A stretch of DNA of 32,000 nucleotides from Aquifex aeolicus VF5 (GTDB lineage Bacteria; Aquificota; Aquificia; Aquificales; Aquificaceae). The stretch spans positions 150,001 through 182,000 of the forward strand of contig NC_000918.1 in the NCBI RefSeq assembly GCF_000008625.1, written 5' to 3'. How positions within the stretch are numbered: position 1 is the first letter of the stretch; each line of letters opens with the position of its first letter. Position numbers and translations under genes: made by a program. A model generated the notes under the pieces. The model was not told where the DNA came from, did not search any database, and was given only the letters and a program-made list of their open reading frames with translations. Below are positions 3,594-18,974 of this stretch, in pieces.

Positions 3594-5067
3594 TCTCTAT
3601 AAGGTAAACCTCTCCCCTGTTCTGTATGGGGATCGTTCCCTTGCTCCCCGTTATTACAAATATCCTTCCTTCGCTATCCCTTACTATAGCCTGAATGGCT
3701 TCTTCAAACTTTCTTCCTTTGAGTTTAATCGCCTCGTAAACCTTTTCCTTTTTCCTTACAACGGTCCAGAGTTCCCCTTCCGTAAACTTTGTAAAGCCCA
3801 CAAGCTGGAATATGTTACTCGCCCTGTTTTTTGCTATTAGAGGTAAAACGTCCTTGTAAACTTTTGTGAAGTTCGGTCTAACGTAGAAGCCGTACTTGTC
3901 TCCTTCCGCATACTCGTAAACTCCGGGAACCTCCGCGGTTGTGTAGGAAAGTCCGAACCCGTCCTCCGTTAAAACCTCCTCATCGTTTACGTAAACCCTG
4001 AGCTGTCCGTCGTTGTCCACAAAAACGAGAACGTTGTTCCAGGCATTCGCACCGTCTACTCTAAAGTCTTCAGGAAGATTAAGGGCGTCTTTCCTTACAA
4101 GTTTATCACCTCGGAGCTCAAACCTGTAAACCTTTCCCCAGCTTCCTTTAAACTCCTGCCCTATGAGAACTTTCTTTCCGTTTTGATAGAAAAATCCAAA
4201 GAGGTATGGAACGTTTTTATCGGTAAGCATTAGGGAGTTTCCTACGGGACTAAGAACGGCGGAACTCGCCTCCCCGTTCGATATCATGTTTACGAGAACG
4301 GCAGACCTTCCTTTATTTTCGTAGCACACAACACCAACAGGATAACCTGTAGGAATGGCGTAAGATAGTACTTCAACAAAGTCGGTTTTTAGTACTTCGT
4401 AAACTTTTACTTTGTCGGAAAAGAGAACTACAAGGTAATCTTTCTTTCCGAAGAGTTTACAGATATCCGCAGATAGCGGAAGGCTCTCCAGACTTCTCAC
4501 AAACTTAGCCTTTAGGGCAAAGTCTTCAAAAACACCACCTCTTTTTGCAAAGCCCACACCGGAGTACTGGAAGAATGCAAGAGGTTTTCCTTTGTAAGAA
4601 ACACCGTAACCGTTTTCAAGTTCCTTTACCACGTAATCGCAGTTTTCAGAGTTCCTTTTTACATTTTGAACTACTTGACTGAGGGCGTAATACCCTTCGT
4701 CTCCTCCAATATAACACACACTACCAATTTTTAGCTTTACCCTATCACCGGGCTTTATTCCGTTGTTTTCTAAGGTTTTTGCCTCCGAAAAATTCTCTCT
4801 CGGCTTTATAACCTCTACTTCTCCTACCTTTTCTTCCTTGTATCCGAGAACTTTTTTCGTAACGGGGTGAATTATGGGCTTTTTACTCTGGAAAACTTCA
4901 AAGATCTCTCCGGGAAAGGCTTTTCCCCTCGGAAGGTCTATCAATACTTTTTCCCCTTCCTTTTCAACCACGTATCCGCTTCTCTGAAAGAATTCCAGAA
5001 GTTCTTTTGGAACTTGAGCAAAGAGAAAGGTACTTAAAAACAATATTAATAGACTAAGTGTACGCAT
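3580..5067 (-). CDS. Hypothetical secreted protein (cleavable N-terminal signal peptide)
   Basis: 495 aa. The N-terminus '[18 protein letters not shown]' looks like a signal peptide. No family recognised, though there are weak FG-GAP/beta-propeller-like '[10 protein letters not shown]' stretches. Its start overlaps the leuB stop by 14 nt, so it is probably co-transcribed with leuB. Confidence 0.6.
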
Positions 5068-6148: not shown

Positions 6149-6459
6149 ATGATGTATTTTAGCAATAAAAACTTAGACGAATTTATTATAATTATGTTTA
6201 AGGGCTACAAAGCCCCTCCTGGCTCCTTGGCAATTGAATATGGTTTATGGGTCTCAATGAGTGATGCTTTGATGACGTGATGAAATGAAATCATGATGCA
6301 ATAGGGCTGAAGGGATTGAAAATCAAGGGTAAAAATTTTATAAAGGTATACTCAAGTTTGCAGAACCTCAGGTTAGCGGAAATTAACGTTCGTTTCGTGA
6401 GGGTCAGAAGTTTAATAAGTTATTGATAAAGCGTTATTTTTTAGACACAGGCGTGCAGG

Positions 6460-6766
6460 GTTCCTAATGTACCGTGTGGAGTTGAAACCCAGTCAGATTG
6501 AAGTTATCGTCAACTTCAAAATACGGTTCCTAATGTACCGTGTGGAGTTGAAACCTTGCTTTATCAGAGAATAGTATTCTTTCTATGTCTTCATAGTTTG
6601 TTCCTAATGTACCGTGTGGAGTTGAAACCTCTTGATAGTATCTGTTTTCCGCGTATTCCACGATTCTTTTGTTCCTAATGTACCGTAGTGGAGTTGAAAC
6701 TTCGGTGATAAAGGAGCATTTTTCACAAAAGAAATCAGTTTCTAATGTACCGTGTGGATAAAAATG
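6460..6766 (+). CRISPR. Small CRISPR array: 4 intact repeats plus 1 degenerate terminal repeat, 4 spacers
   Basis: The 29-nt repeat GTTCCTAATGTACCGTGTGGAGTTGAAAC occurs at 6460-6488, 6526-6554 and 6600-6628. A 30-nt copy with a 1-nt insertion (..CCGTaGTGG..) is at 6671-6700. A degenerate copy GTTtCTAATGTACCGTGTGGAtaaaaatg is at 6738-6766. Spacers are 37, 45, 42 and 37 nt. The repeat ends in GTTGAAAC and the degenerate repeat is at the right end, which suggests + strand transcription from an AT-rich leader at about 6290-6459. Confidence 0.9.
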
Positions 6767-6793
6767 ATTATTTGTGTTTAAAATTCTTTAGAA

Positions 6794-15377: not shown

Positions 15378-16371
15378 CTTCTTTCTTTCTCAATTCTTCA
15401 AGCTTCTCAAAGTCCTTAGTTGAGAGCACGTCTATGTGCCAGCCTGTTAGCTTAGAAGCCAGCTTTACGTTGATGCCTTTCTTACCTATAGCCAAGGAAA
15501 GTTCTTCCTCGGGAACGGCAACTTCTGCCCTCTTCTCGTAAGGGAAAAGTTTTATCTTTTCTGGATGTGCGGGAGCAAGTGCCCGCTTTATTAATTCCGC
15601 TATATCGTCGCTCCACCTTATCACGTCTATCTTTTCACCACCCAGCTCTTCGGATACCTTTTGAATTCTCATTCCCTTTAAACCAACGACTATACCAACA
15701 GGATCCATCTTCATTTCCTTTGCTTCCACAGCCACCTTAGCCCTTTCTCCGGGAATTCTCGCAACTGCCTTTATCTCAACTAATCCCTCCTTTATTTCGG
15801 GAACTTCCTGCTCAAGTAGTTTTCTCAAAAAGTTAGGGTGCGTTCTTGAGAGTATTAAAACCGGCTCCCCTCTGCGCTTTCTCACCTCAAGTAAAAGAGC
15901 CTTTACCTTATCTCCCGTTTTAAAGTTATCCGTGGGGAGTTGTTCCCGTTTCGGGAGTATAGCGTCTATCCTTCCCAGATCAACTATAACGTCCCCATTT
16001 TCGAGAACTTTTCTTACTATCCCGTAAACTATTTCCCCTTCAAGTTCCTTAAACTCAAGGTATCCCCTTTCCTGTTCCGCCCTTTCAAGTTCTTTGTAAA
16101 ACTCTTCCTTTGCCGCATAAGCTGCCAATCTATTCAGATCCTCAGGGGATATATCTAAAGGAAACTTAAATTTCTTGTTCCCTTTTCTCCTTACTACGTA
16201 TACCTTGATACCTTCATCGGTAAACTCAACTTCCAGTTCGTCCCTGATTTTCTTCTCTTTCCTTATGGCTGTGATTATCGCGTTTTTTAGTGCACGCTCC
16301 ACAACTCTTTCCGGAAGGTCGTGTTCCGTTGCTACCTGCTCTATCAATTTTTGGAGCTGTGCCTTTACCAT
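15358..16371 (-). CDS. nusA: Transcription termination/antitermination factor NusA (no C-terminal AR repeats)
   Basis: 337 aa with an N-terminal NusA domain, an S1 domain ('GEIVYGIVRKV...GDVIVDLG') and two KH domains ('VGLKGMRIQ', 'AIGKKGINVKLA'). Confidence 0.95.
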   Translation of the reverse strand: MVKAQLQKLIEQVATEHDLPERVVERALKNAIITAIRKEKKIRDELEVEFTDEGIKVYVVRRKGNKKFKFPLDISPEDLNRLAAYAAKEEFYKELERAEQERGYLEFKELEGEIVYGIVRKVLENGDVIVDLGRIDAILPKREQLPTDNFKTGDKVKALLLEVRKRRGEPVLILSRTHPNFLRKLLEQEVPEIKEGLVEIKAVARIPGERAKVAVEAKEMKMDPVGIVVGLKGMRIQKVSEELGGEKIDVIRWSDDIAELIKRALAPAHPEKIKLFPYEKRAEVAVPEEELSLAIGKKGINVKLASKLTGWHIDVLSTKDFEKLEELRKKEDEGQTS

Positions 16372-16841
16372 CCTTCAATCTCCAGTCTTCCCTTAGCTAT
16401 AGCGGAAAAGGGTATGTGTAAAACCTTGCCCTTCTCCTTTTCGCGAATATCTATTATACCGTTTTTAACGTCCTCTATATAGCCGACTACTTCCCTTTTA
16501 CCCTCTATGGGTTCTTTAAGGATGAGTTTAACGAGCCTTCCCTTGAAAAAGTCGTAGTGTTCTACCTTGGTAAGGGGTCTCGTGAGTCCCGGAGAAGTTA
16601 TTTCGAGAAGGTAAGAGAAGGGTATTATATCCTCCACGTCAAGCAGAGCACTTACCTTTCTGCTAATCTCTTCACAGTCCTTTATAGTTATGCCTCCTTC
16701 TTTATCAGCAATAATCCTGAGAACCCAACCTCTACCCTCGGGCTTGAACTCAACGTCGAAGAGCTTAAACCCCATACCTCTGATAACAGGCTCTACTATT
16801 TCCTTAACCTTTTTCTCTATTTCCTCTCTATTTATTTCCAT
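16365..16841 (-). CDS. rimP: Ribosome maturation factor RimP
   Basis: 158 aa. 'LEITSPGLTRPL' motif. Canonical rimP-nusA order with a 7-nt overlap. Confidence 0.9.
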   Translation of the reverse strand: MEINREEIEKKVKEIVEPVIRGMGFKLFDVEFKPEGRGWVLRIIADKEGGITIKDCEEISRKVSALLDVEDIIPFSYLLEITSPGLTRPLTKVEHYDFFKGRLVKLILKEPIEGKREVVGYIEDVKNGIIDIREKEKGKVLHIPFSAIAKGRLEIEGW

Positions 16842-16935
16842 ACTATTTATTTTGTATTAATAAGAATAATAATAGGCGGCTATTTTCATGTGACAAATTT
16901 CAAAACCCATTGATTTTCAAGCTTTTCCCGAAAAA

Positions 16936-17164
16936 CTTTCCACAACTTTTCCACATGAACAACTTAAGTTATTTATAATTCGTAAGTTTTAAGTCACCGG
17001 ATTGTTTCGTAGTATGAATAACTTAAGAAGTTTTCCACATTTATCCACATTTTTAACGTAAGTAGTTTATACACCGTGGTTTTCTTTTGAGTAGATTGTG
17101 TCGTTATATGAACAACTTATGAGTTTTCCACAATTCTCCACATGTGAAAAGTGAGTTATCCACA
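16936..17164 (+). promoter_or_regulatory. Seven DnaA-box-like 9-mers in forward orientation
   Basis: CTTTCCACA 16936-16944; TTTTCCACA 16947-16955; TTTTCCACA 17031-17039; TTATCCACA 17041-17049 (perfect); TTTTCCACA 17124-17132; TTCTCCACA 17134-17142; TTATCCACA 17156-17164 (perfect). Confidence 0.75.
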
Positions 17165-17253
17165 TACCGAATAAAAAGTTTCATTGTACGAATAACTTAC
17201 GAAAAATTTAAAGGATTCTATGAATACATTGATTTTCAGGCAGGAGATTGTTT

Positions 17254-17318
17254 TGTGGAAAATTTGTGTGAAAATATGTGGAAAGATTGTGGATAATTTG
17301 TGGAAAAAATGTGGAAAG
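17254..17318 (-). promoter_or_regulatory. Phased array of 5-6 DnaA-box-like 9-mers in reverse orientation
   Basis: TGTGGAAAA 17254-17262; weaker TGTGTGAAA 17265-17273; TGTGGAAAG 17277-17285; TGTGGATAA 17288-17296 (perfect complement); TGTGGAAAA 17299-17307; TGTGGAAAG 17310-17318. Start-to-start spacing is 11, 12, 11, 11 and 11 bp. Confidence 0.75.
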
Positions 17319-17376
17319 AAGGAGAAGAAAAGCCTTGATTTTCACAGAGTTCTCAGGGGGTATGTGTTGGAATGCT

Positions 17377-17571
17377 TTAAGGTGATATTTCTACCCTCCC
17401 ATTATCGTCGTAAATGTACAGCTTTCCTTCCTCTTCGTCTTTAGTCCTCTTGTGAGAACCGTCGCAGAAGGGGAACTTTTTTGAAAGTCCGCACTGGCAT
17501 ATGTAGTAAGTTTCTTCTCCCGCCTCCAGCTTGTAAGGCCCTTTTTCTGTGAACTTAACTAATCTTGCCAT
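17377..17571 (-). CDS. CDGSH iron-sulfur domain protein
   Basis: 64 aa. 'CQCGLSKKFPFCDGSH' matches the CDGSH [2Fe-2S] signature C-x-C-x2-S-x3-P-x-C-D-G-S-H. Confidence 0.8.
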   Translation of the reverse strand: MARLVKFTEKGPYKLEAGEETYYICQCGLSKKFPFCDGSHKRTKDEEEGKLYIYDDNGRVEISP

Positions 17572-18490: not shown

Positions 18491-18860
18491 ATGGAAACTA
18501 AGAGTTCTCCTGTGATACTCAACGGTAAGGAGTACTACTGTCCCGTTGAGCTAGTCATAGATCTTATAAGCGGTAAGTGGAAGCTATTAATACTGAAAGA
18601 GCTTATGTCCGGCACTAAGAGGTTCTCTCAACTTCAAAGAGCTATACCCGGAATCACCCAAAAAAAAAATGCTTACCAAACAATTGAGAGAACTGGAAAA
18701 AGCGGGTCTTGTTCGTAGAAAAGTCTATCCGGAAATTCCGCCGAGAGTGGAATATAGTTTAACAGAGCTCGGTAAAAGTCTTGAAGAAATATTCAACGCC
18801 ATGCACCGTTGGGGTGAAAGGTATATGAAGAGTATGAAAAACGAAACAAAGGAATTATAA
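18491..18860 (+). pseudogene. HxlR-family winged-helix transcriptional regulator, frameshifted in an A10 run
   Basis: Two overlapping ORFs (18491-18718 and 18669-18860) together give the full HxlR pattern: 'CPVELVIDLISGKWKLLILKELMSGTKRFSQLQRAIPGITQKK' then 'MLTKQLRELEKAGLVRRKVYPEIPPRVEYSLTELG'. The break is exactly at the A10 tract 18660-18669. With 9 A's the frame reads ...GITQKKMLTKQL... without interruption. Confidence 0.8.
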
Positions 18861-18874
18861 TTATTTATCTGGTA

Positions 18875-18966
18875 GGAAGGGTGGCCGAGCGGTCGAAGGC
18901 GCGGCGCTGGAAACGCCGTGTACCCCGTTTGGGGTACCGAGGGTTCGAATCCCTCCCCTTCCGCCA
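18875..18966 (+). tRNA. tRNA-Ser (anticodon GGA), encoded CCA
   Basis: Hand-folded. Acceptor GGAAGGG/CCCTTCC; D-arm GCC-GAGCGGTCGAA-GGC; anticodon stem CGGCG/CGCCG with loop CTGGAAA; long variable arm GTACCCC-GTTT-GGGGTAC; T-arm GAGGG-TTCGAAT-CCCTC; discriminator G; CCA. Confidence 0.9.
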
Positions 18967-18974
18967 TTCCCGCT

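Follow-up and report, generated by a model that had tools for sequence, protein, structure and literature searches.

A probable DnaA-dependent chromosomal replication origin of Aquifex aeolicus VF5, located upstream of rimP-nusA and away from dnaA

The locus

The subject of this report is a 535-bp intergenic region of the Aquifex aeolicus VF5 chromosome, which we believe to be oriC, the DnaA-dependent origin of chromosomal replication, situated upstream of rimP-nusA and away from dnaA. It occupies positions 16842-17376 of the 32-kb stretch of DNA that was analysed as a whole (hereafter the window), which corresponds to about 166,842-167,376 of NC_000918; the window itself is 150,001-182,000 of the same sequence. 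We put the probability of this reading at about 85%. A first-pass annotation of the same DNA had already proposed a chromosomal origin here, and the proposal is supported by the cluster of DnaA boxes, by a putative unwinding module at the left edge of the region, by conservation in related genomes and by an earlier published prediction for the same locus.

The left edge of the gap abuts the start of rimP (16365-16841, minus strand), behind which lies nusA. At the right edge is the stop codon of a gene encoding a CDGSH iron-sulfur protein (17377-17571, minus strand), and a methyltransferase gene comes next. The rimP-nusA genes and the CDGSH protein had been named as neighbours before, and Pfam searches agree with this. 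The RimP protein encoded in the window is identical to that of A. aeolicus VF5 (AAC06588.1 / WP_010880117.1 / UniProt O66619), and an identical rimP is found in the sequencing runs ERR15087784 and SRR29904083. Bacterial origins typically, although not obligatorily, lie adjacent to the indicator genes dnaA, dnaN or gidA. None of the three was found among the 17 open reading frames (ORFs) of the window that were run against Pfam, a subset of its ORFs having been annotated in this way. The earlier statement that the window lacks these genes therefore holds for the 17 scanned ORFs.

DnaA boxes

The DnaA box TTATCCACA was searched for on the plus strand and in reverse over the whole window, with up to one or up to two mismatches allowed. 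With up to two mismatches, the gap contains 14 box-like 9-mers, i.e. 26 per kb, compared to 3.0 per kb in the window outside of it, and the next-densest 535-bp stretch holds six. With up to one mismatch the window has 19 matches, nine of which fall within 16947-17307; shuffled sequences yield 5.4 +/- 2.6 matches and none of 100 shuffles reaches 19. By density as well as by comparison with the shuffles, the gap thus carries what is expected of oriC, a box cluster well above the background of the window.

The boxes form two sets of opposite orientation, and the search recovered every box that the first-pass annotation had listed. The forward set consists of seven boxes between 16936 and 17164, starting at 16936 (two mismatches), 16947 (one), 17031 (one), 17041 (perfect), 17124 (one), 17134 (one) and 17156 (perfect). 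To these we can add a weak eighth box at 17067 (TTATACACC, two mismatches). As was noted earlier, forward boxes occur mainly as pairs, with 10-11 bp between partners. From one pair to the next the distance is 94 and then 93 bp. Pair 1 (16936-16955; CTTTCCACA and TTTTCCACA) and pair 2 (17031-17049; TTTTCCACA and TTATCCACA) are both kept in all eight genomes that we compared (VF5 and the seven relatives described below). The third group spans 17124-17164 and comprises the boxes at 17124, 17134 and 17156 (TTTTCCACA, TTCTCCACA and TTATCCACA, respectively); those at 17124 and 17156 are kept in seven to eight genomes, and the one at 17134 lies within an extra segment seen in VF5 only.

The reverse set (17254-17318, minus strand) had been described as five to six boxes with a spacing of 11-12 bp and a perfect copy at 17288, and this is indeed what we find. 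Boxes start at 17254 (one mismatch), 17277 (two), 17288 (perfect), 17299 (one) and 17310 (two), and a sixth one, TGTGTGAAA, with three mismatches, starts at 17265, so that the steps from start to start are 11, 12, 11, 11 and 11 bp. Four to seven phased reverse boxes are present at the matching place in all eight genomes.

A putative unwinding module at the left edge

The left edge of the gap, next to rimP, contains an ordered series of elements. The first is an AT-rich tract (16842-16873), which also holds the 5' leader of rimP and is the probable DNA unwinding element. According to nearest-neighbour calculations, the least stable 30-mer of the entire 32 kb is 16844-16873, with -26.7 kcal/mol against a mean of -38.4 (standard deviation 3.0), or about 3.9 standard deviations. 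An easily melted AT-rich element beside the boxes, which is another expected property of oriC, is therefore present.

Within and immediately after this tract the plus strand carries an array of DnaA-trios, TAT TAA TAA GAA TAA TAA TAG (16855-16875), in which the trio on the box side, TAG, reads 3'-GAT-5'. The same seven trios are given in the NC_000918 row of Table S1 of Pelliciari et al. 2021 (NAR 49:7525, PMC8287927). A 13-nt spacer (16876-16888) follows, which opens with the GC cluster GCGGC according to both our pattern scan and Table S1; in the relatives the spacer is likewise G+C-rich, while its sequence differs. Published lengths of the spacer between trios and box peak at 10-13 bp. The last element is a trio-proximal DnaA box on the minus strand (16889-16897), TTTGTCACA, which reads TGTGACAAA on the plus strand. 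It is degenerate in VF5, having two mismatches to the VF5-type consensus TTTTCCACA. At the same position five relatives have TGTGGAYAA or GTGGATAAA, and in L137 and L138 the box is lost.

This order (AT tract, TAA TAA GAA TAA TAA TAG, the 13-nt spacer led by GCGGC, TGTGACAAA), which agrees with the unwinding modules known from B. subtilis and further bacteria, was read from the sequence before Table S1 was found. We also performed a blind scan for six NAN triplets, with five or more of the form [T/A]A[G/A], followed after 3-16 nt by a correctly oriented box with no more than two mismatches. On both strands of the 32 kb it returned a single site (16858), where 0.05 are expected from first-order random sequences. 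A basal unwinding system (BUS) is recognized by three or more trios that lie no farther than 16 bp from a box of the right orientation; here there are six to seven trios at 13 nt from the box at 16889, which itself carries two to three mismatches.

The same DNA may have a further role. A consensus scan revealed a candidate sigma-70-type promoter for rimP-nusA on the minus strand (16869-16896; TTGTCA, a 16-nt spacer, TATTAT), a pattern match at 10 of 12 positions. Its -35 element overlaps the trio-proximal box and its -10 element falls within the trios. Origin opening and rimP transcription may thus be coupled, judging from this overlap.

Conservation among Aquifex relatives

We collected related loci by searches anchored on the NusA and RimP proteins, supplemented with members of the RimP cluster. 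This gave seven relatives from the Aquifex clade (L002, L082, L083, L132, L136, which is A. pyrophilus, L137 and L138), whose RimP proteins are 84-93% identical to that of VF5. In all seven, the 515-620 bp of intergenic DNA upstream of rimP hold 11-17 box-like 9-mers, and the elements follow one another in the same order: trios, the trio-proximal reverse box (except in L137 and L138), a dyad, box pair 1, box pair 2, two forward boxes, a second dyad, the phased reverse array of four to seven boxes and a third dyad. The dyad, TTGAWWWTCA(A/G)G, brackets the box arrays at three fixed positions, also in L002, L082, L083, L132, L136 and L137. Within the trios, AATAATAATAG is kept in seven of the eight genomes, and L138 has AATAATAAAGG instead.

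Overall, the gaps are only 47-68% identical to that of VF5. Identity is unevenly distributed, however: in pairwise comparison of columns it amounts to 73-79% in the boxes and 80-83% in the dyads, compared to 51-55% in the remaining columns. Conservation in related genomes, as expected for oriC, is therefore observed in eight Aquifex-clade genomes, with the boxes conserved above the spacers.

One lineage, L138 (2353-2893, JGI Ga0072504_122105), has a box sequence of its own. Every homologous box in this locus is TTATCGACA, with seven perfect copies and not a single TTATCCACA. The change is concerted and affects box position 6, which is normally invariant. Such a concerted change is expected if one protein reads all the boxes. 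We found no change in DnaA that would match the switch, as the Aquifex-clade DnaA proteins that were fetched all keep KDHTTVIHA, with no DnaA confidently assigned to L138.

The boxes of VF5 are more degenerate than those of the relatives, since only three copies are perfect and the others are mostly TTTTCCACA or CTTTCCACA. Five relatives have 6-11 perfect copies of TTATCCACA each; L132 has only three, like VF5.

Conservation ends near the right edge of the gap. In L002, L082, L132, L136, L137 and L138 the gene that follows is obg, diverging from rimP, whereas VF5 has the 3' end of the CDGSH-protein gene (the L083 sequence ends before the right flank). Homology between VF5 and the relatives stops near 17362, and obg is not among the right-flank ORFs of VF5 that were scanned. 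A rearrangement breakpoint thus lies right at the edge of the origin, at about 17362-17376.

Where would the origin open?

The first-pass annotation pointed out two AT-rich stretches, one on the left flank and one of 89 bp between the two box arrays, and is read here as favouring the central one as the site of unwinding. Both do exist, as their A+T content is 78% (16842-16900) and 72% (17165-17253), against 56.6% for the window. The central stretch, however, barely exceeds the 69% of the whole gap, and it is only the left one that stands out in stability. The central spacer (17165-17253) is unremarkable in stability, at -31 to -37 kcal/mol for 30 bp. Neither reading of the sequence nor the blind window scan revealed a trio array upstream of the reverse array (17254) or downstream of the box at 17156.

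An origin at this locus could nevertheless melt in the central spacer, between the converging arrays, in which case the left tract would be only the rimP promoter. The spacer is indeed 72% A+T and has an array on either side, the left box of VF5 is a weak one that L137 and L138 lack, and the left AT tract doubles as a promoter. On the other hand, the spacer is far from the -26.7 kcal/mol reached on the left, it has no trio array beside a correctly oriented box, and instead of plain AT-rich DNA it holds conserved motifs that resemble protein sites, a 15-mer (17187-17201) and the second copy of the dyad (17229-17240). We regard central melting as an unlikely arrangement, though the likeliest of the alternatives to our interpretation. 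The left tract by rimP is the likely site of unwinding, and in our opinion the better candidate on sequence grounds because trios, the GC spacer and a box of the right orientation are found there together with the lowest stability in the window. A placement of the unwinding site in the central stretch therefore needs correcting.

An earlier prediction of the same origin

The locus is not new to the literature. Table S1 of Pelliciari et al. 2021 (PMC8287927) contains a row for NC_000918 with the DoriC accession ORI97017010, in which a BUS is predicted, 3'->5', as CAAAACTTT AAACAGTGT ACTTTTATCGGCG GATAATAATAAGAATAATTAT, from 166,906 to 166,854, with a spacer of 13, seven trios and a score of 19. 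The 52 nt at 16855-16906 of the window are identical, letter for letter, to this string reversed. Because of this identity, we conclude that our locus is the origin prediction already published. DoriC picks origins genome-wide by Z-curve asymmetry, box distribution and neighbouring genes. The oriC of A. aeolicus VF5 is further drawn in Yoshida et al. 2023 (PMC10325909), where the legend of Fig. 9B remarks on its length and explains that DUEs (DNA unwinding elements) carry a mark for either an experimental determination or a prediction.

The assignment of the A. aeolicus origin to 16842-17376 is therefore correct in our opinion, but it is already known from DoriC and the 2021 survey, and since both list it, the locus adds little as a discovery. 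Described here beyond the left-edge module of Table S1 are the genus comparison, the phased reverse array, the modules of 94 bp and two extra classes of motifs. Of these, the two further conserved motif classes and the lineage in which all boxes are TTATCGACA may be new.

Origin or another DnaA-binding locus

The relationship of the region to dnaA deserves attention, given that the two are separate. No box cluster was found by dnaA in two loci, that of A. pyrophilus (L129), covered for 10 kb upstream and about 10 kb downstream, and that of the aeolicus-like contig L131, covered for 5 kb and 10 kb, respectively. At both dnaA loci any 500 bp contain at most two boxes, the genes are tightly packed and the gaps beside dnaA do not exceed 90 bp. 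In A. pyrophilus the rimP locus and dnaA belong to separate contigs, and the distance between them is at least about 155 kb; for VF5, the RefSeq protein numbers, which are 40 apart, suggest that dnaA is roughly 40 kb from rimP. The DnaA protein of A. aeolicus retains the DHTTV recognition helix. L131 does have a single perfect DnaA box (4989-4997), 23 bp upstream of the dnaA start, and A. pyrophilus has no box there; such a box is consistent with autoregulation of dnaA.

Several points weigh against an origin at this locus. First, VF5 has a degenerate trio-proximal box, and two relatives, L137 and L138, have none. Second, the conservation of AATAATAATAG could stem from the -10 region of rimP rather than from trio function, and part of the left-edge conservation in general could be due to promoter function, because the match to a rimP promoter shares the same DNA. 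Third, GC and AT skew across the 32-kb window follows gene orientation with no clean switch, and the genes of the right flank are only about 53% co-directional with a rightward fork. In published work A. aeolicus is grouped with the chromosomes that show hardly any replication-linked skew and have unequal arms, and as such skew is nearly absent, the GC-skew test is weak for this organism even genome-wide. Fourth, the box-cluster maximum that we found is that of the 32-kb window, and the genome-wide choice of the locus rests on the DoriC procedure. Fifth, whether the origin had been mapped was left open by the first-pass annotation; it has been predicted, but the papers that we could read contain no experimental origin mapping (marker frequency, DnaA footprinting or unwinding assays) for A. 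aeolicus. Finally, more than 40 loci of other Aquificaceae genera (L003-L010 and L084-L128), in which RimP is at most 73% identical, lack a cluster upstream of rimP.

Because of this last result, the position of the cluster upstream of rimP is genus-specific. We also found no cluster of the TTATCCACA type within 6 kb of dnaA in a contig resembling Hydrogenobacter thermophilus (L139). Judging from these loci, the origins of the other Aquificaceae genera are situated elsewhere or rely on boxes of another kind. For H. thermophilus TK-6 the BUS derived from DoriC is built on one box only, with one mismatch.

On the same evidence one could argue that the region binds DnaA without being an origin and that replication starts elsewhere. 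It would then serve for titration or for regulation of DnaA-ATP, like datA, DARS and the clusters of Bacillus subtilis, or as a DnaA-controlled divergent promoter of rimP-nusA and obg. Indeed, other bacteria have box clusters away from their origins (PMC2533591), a box shares its DNA with the candidate rimP promoter, the divergent genes rimP and obg, both linked to growth rate, flank the region in six relatives, and skew lends an origin no support. Yet this explanation has to accommodate 14-17 strictly phased boxes that come with a trio module and with the stability minimum of the window, a locus chosen by the genome-wide procedure of DoriC, and a genus with no cluster near dnaA. The loci datA and DARS carry far fewer boxes than the 14-17 at the Aquifex locus. 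More generally, datA, DARS and the DnaA-box clusters of B. subtilis resemble it in lying outside the dnaA region, but they contain few boxes and have neither trios nor an unwinding module, while the Aquifex region has at least 14 boxes, a trio module and the tract of minimum stability. We therefore consider a purely regulatory DnaA site improbable, somewhat more so than central melting.

To a chance or low-complexity feature, or to what is left of a mobile element or a plasmid iteron origin, which would take no part in replicating the chromosome, we give hardly any credence: the region is repetitive and the right flank of VF5 is rearranged, but none of 100 shuffles reaches the box count, the repeats are canonical DnaA boxes, each position of the layout is kept in the eight genomes at a fixed site by rimP, and the Pfam-scanned ORFs include no flanking mobile-element genes.

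The chromosomal origin thus remains our preferred interpretation. The sequence anatomy, the statistics, the conservation and the identity with the published prediction are what the analysis has shown.

Proposed mechanism

Beyond this, we infer DnaA binding, the site of melting and the firing of the origin, and by analogy with other origins the following sequence of events seems plausible to us. Domain IV of DnaA would bind the three forward box pairs, which would present their sites on the same face of the helix because a distance of 93-94 bp corresponds to about nine helical turns. ATP-DnaA would fill the six reverse boxes, 11-12 bp apart, in a cooperative manner, similarly to the arrays of low-affinity sites spaced by 2 bp in Escherichia coli. 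DnaA on the trio-proximal box (16889-16897) would seed an oligomer that extends over the 13-nt spacer with its GC start onto TAA TAA GAA TAA TAA TAG. By capturing the trio strand, the oligomer would open the AT tract (16842-16873), where the helicase would be loaded. Given that the candidate promoter overlaps the module, rimP transcription and DnaA occupancy probably affect each other.

Comparison with known systems

The left-edge module has its closest parallel in the BUS of B. subtilis oriC (incC), which consists of DnaA-box#6 and #7, a GC cluster, DnaA-trios and an AT-rich region. Both the order and the orientation of these elements are shared: a box, a short spacer with a G+C start, repeats of 3'-[G/A]A[T/A]-5' with GAT on the box side, and an AT-rich tract. 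There are also differences. The proximal box of Aquifex is single and degenerate, and the spacer is 13 nt long, compared to 4 nt after a tandem pair in B. subtilis. Moreover, the Aquifex origin is not bipartite around dnaA, and its function is a predicted one.

The general design is reminiscent of E. coli oriC. There are many boxes in two groups of opposite orientation, with gaps of about 2 bp (an 11-bp phase) that support cooperative filling by ATP-DnaA; the unwinding element is at one end, by a box in the TGTGGATAA orientation; and the origin does not lie beside dnaA. The first-pass annotation spoke of opposed sub-arrays of the E. coli type, which holds as far as phased arrays of opposite orientation are concerned. 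The arrays of Aquifex converge, however, forward pairs being followed by reverse boxes, unlike the left and right layout of E. coli. The 535-bp region contains no GATC sites, and its dyad is a poor match to the IHF consensus, so that multiple GATC sites and an IHF site between the boxes proximal to the unwinding element, both typical of E. coli-type origins, are lacking. The neighbours are rimP and the CDGSH-protein gene or obg, not gidA and mioC.

Thermotoga maritima offers a comparison with another hyperthermophile. Its oriC likewise combines box repeats with an adjacent AT-rich unwinding element, and its trios are given in the same Table S1 (PMC8287927). As cited by Yoshida et al. (PMC10325909, referring to Ozaki et al. 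2006), the minimal origin of T. maritima is compact, 149 bp, has the 12-mer box AAACCTACCACC and was opened in vitro. The Aquifex region, by contrast, has boxes of the canonical 9-mer type, extends over about 500 bp and is known from its sequence.

Additional conserved motifs and a CRISPR array

Besides boxes and trios, two classes of motifs recur in the region. The first is the dyad introduced above. Copy 1, TTGATTTTCAAG (16910-16921), is at the same position in all eight genomes. The form TTGAWWWTCARG occurs at 16910 and 17229, and a close variant at 17335. This third copy, TTGATTTTCAC, is followed by a conserved block, TTCTCAGGG, and together they (17335-17360) mark where the conserved origin ends on the right. 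Elsewhere TTGAWWWTCARG is rare, with two occurrences in about 143 kb of other Aquifex DNA. We considered the dyad as an IHF site (WATCAANNNNTTR). In every copy that was checked by eye, in the window and in three relatives, it fits WATCAANNNNTT except for the final purine, and because this last consensus position fails we do not call it an IHF site.

The second class is the 15-mer TATRAAYAACTTAYG, of which the origin has six copies in both orientations: 16954, 16963(-), 17013, 17057(-), 17107 and 17187. The first two overlap (16954-16977, the former on the plus and the latter on the minus strand) and correspond to inverted repeat I2. The copy at 17013-17027 (TATGAATAACTTAAG, plus strand) is directly ahead of box pair 2, and its core, AYTTA-GA, is kept in the relatives. 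The motif search also placed a reverse copy at 17057-17071, overlapping the weak box TTATACACC at 17067-17075, so that the two together span 17057-17075. The copy at 17107-17121 (TATGAACAACTTATG, plus strand, no mismatches) is directly ahead of box pair 3. In other words, 15-mers precede the forward box pairs and, inverted, come after them, which creates inverted repeats between the pairs.

Both motifs reappear at one other place in the window, a small array of clustered regularly interspaced short palindromic repeats (CRISPR) at 6460-6768 with a leader at about 6150-6459. One of the two outside occurrences of the dyad, at 6316, lies in this leader, as does a copy of the 15-mer with two mismatches at 6414(-). 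IHF of E. coli acts both at oriC and at CRISPR leaders, and the copies of the dyad and of the 15-mer at the origin and in the leader recall this dual role. It is conceivable, if somewhat doubtful, that the dyad TTGAWWWTCAAGG and the 15-mer TATRAAYAACTTAYG could bind one or more origin-binding or architectural proteins of Aquificae and, as a separate matter, that the switch of L138 to TTATCGACA implies an initiator with an altered or relaxed reading of box position 6. We offer the dyad, the 15-mer and the L138 switch as leads, not as conclusions.

The CRISPR array itself has five repeats, GTTCCTAATGTACCGTGTGGAGTTGAAAC, the last of them degenerate, and sits between a leuB/icd-like gene and purK with no adjacent cas genes. 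Its repeats mimic DnaA boxes, as they contain GTGTGGAGT, and this explains both a perfect box at 6753 and the second-densest stretch of the window with its six matches. We therefore rejected it as a second cluster of DnaA boxes.

Significance

Structural work on bacterial initiators, from the ATP-dependent helical filament to the complex with single-stranded DNA, has A. aeolicus DnaA as its model, and the organism's own origin is a predicted one. Exact positions of the boxes, trios and melting tract would make the A. aeolicus DnaA structures testable on native DNA. Further, the genus comparison provides a ready mutational map, in which a conserved layout is combined with one lineage where all boxes have changed and with two conserved extra classes of motifs.

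Minor observations

A possible structured RNA was also considered. The window yields a match to the Rfam family AdoCbl-II, which is below threshold (20 bits against a gathering score of 36.5) and which we take as chance. To the right of the region the window contains a gene for tRNA-Ser (GGA) at 18875-18966. It is overlapped on the opposite strand by the listed ORF 18725-18967, which is probably not a gene.

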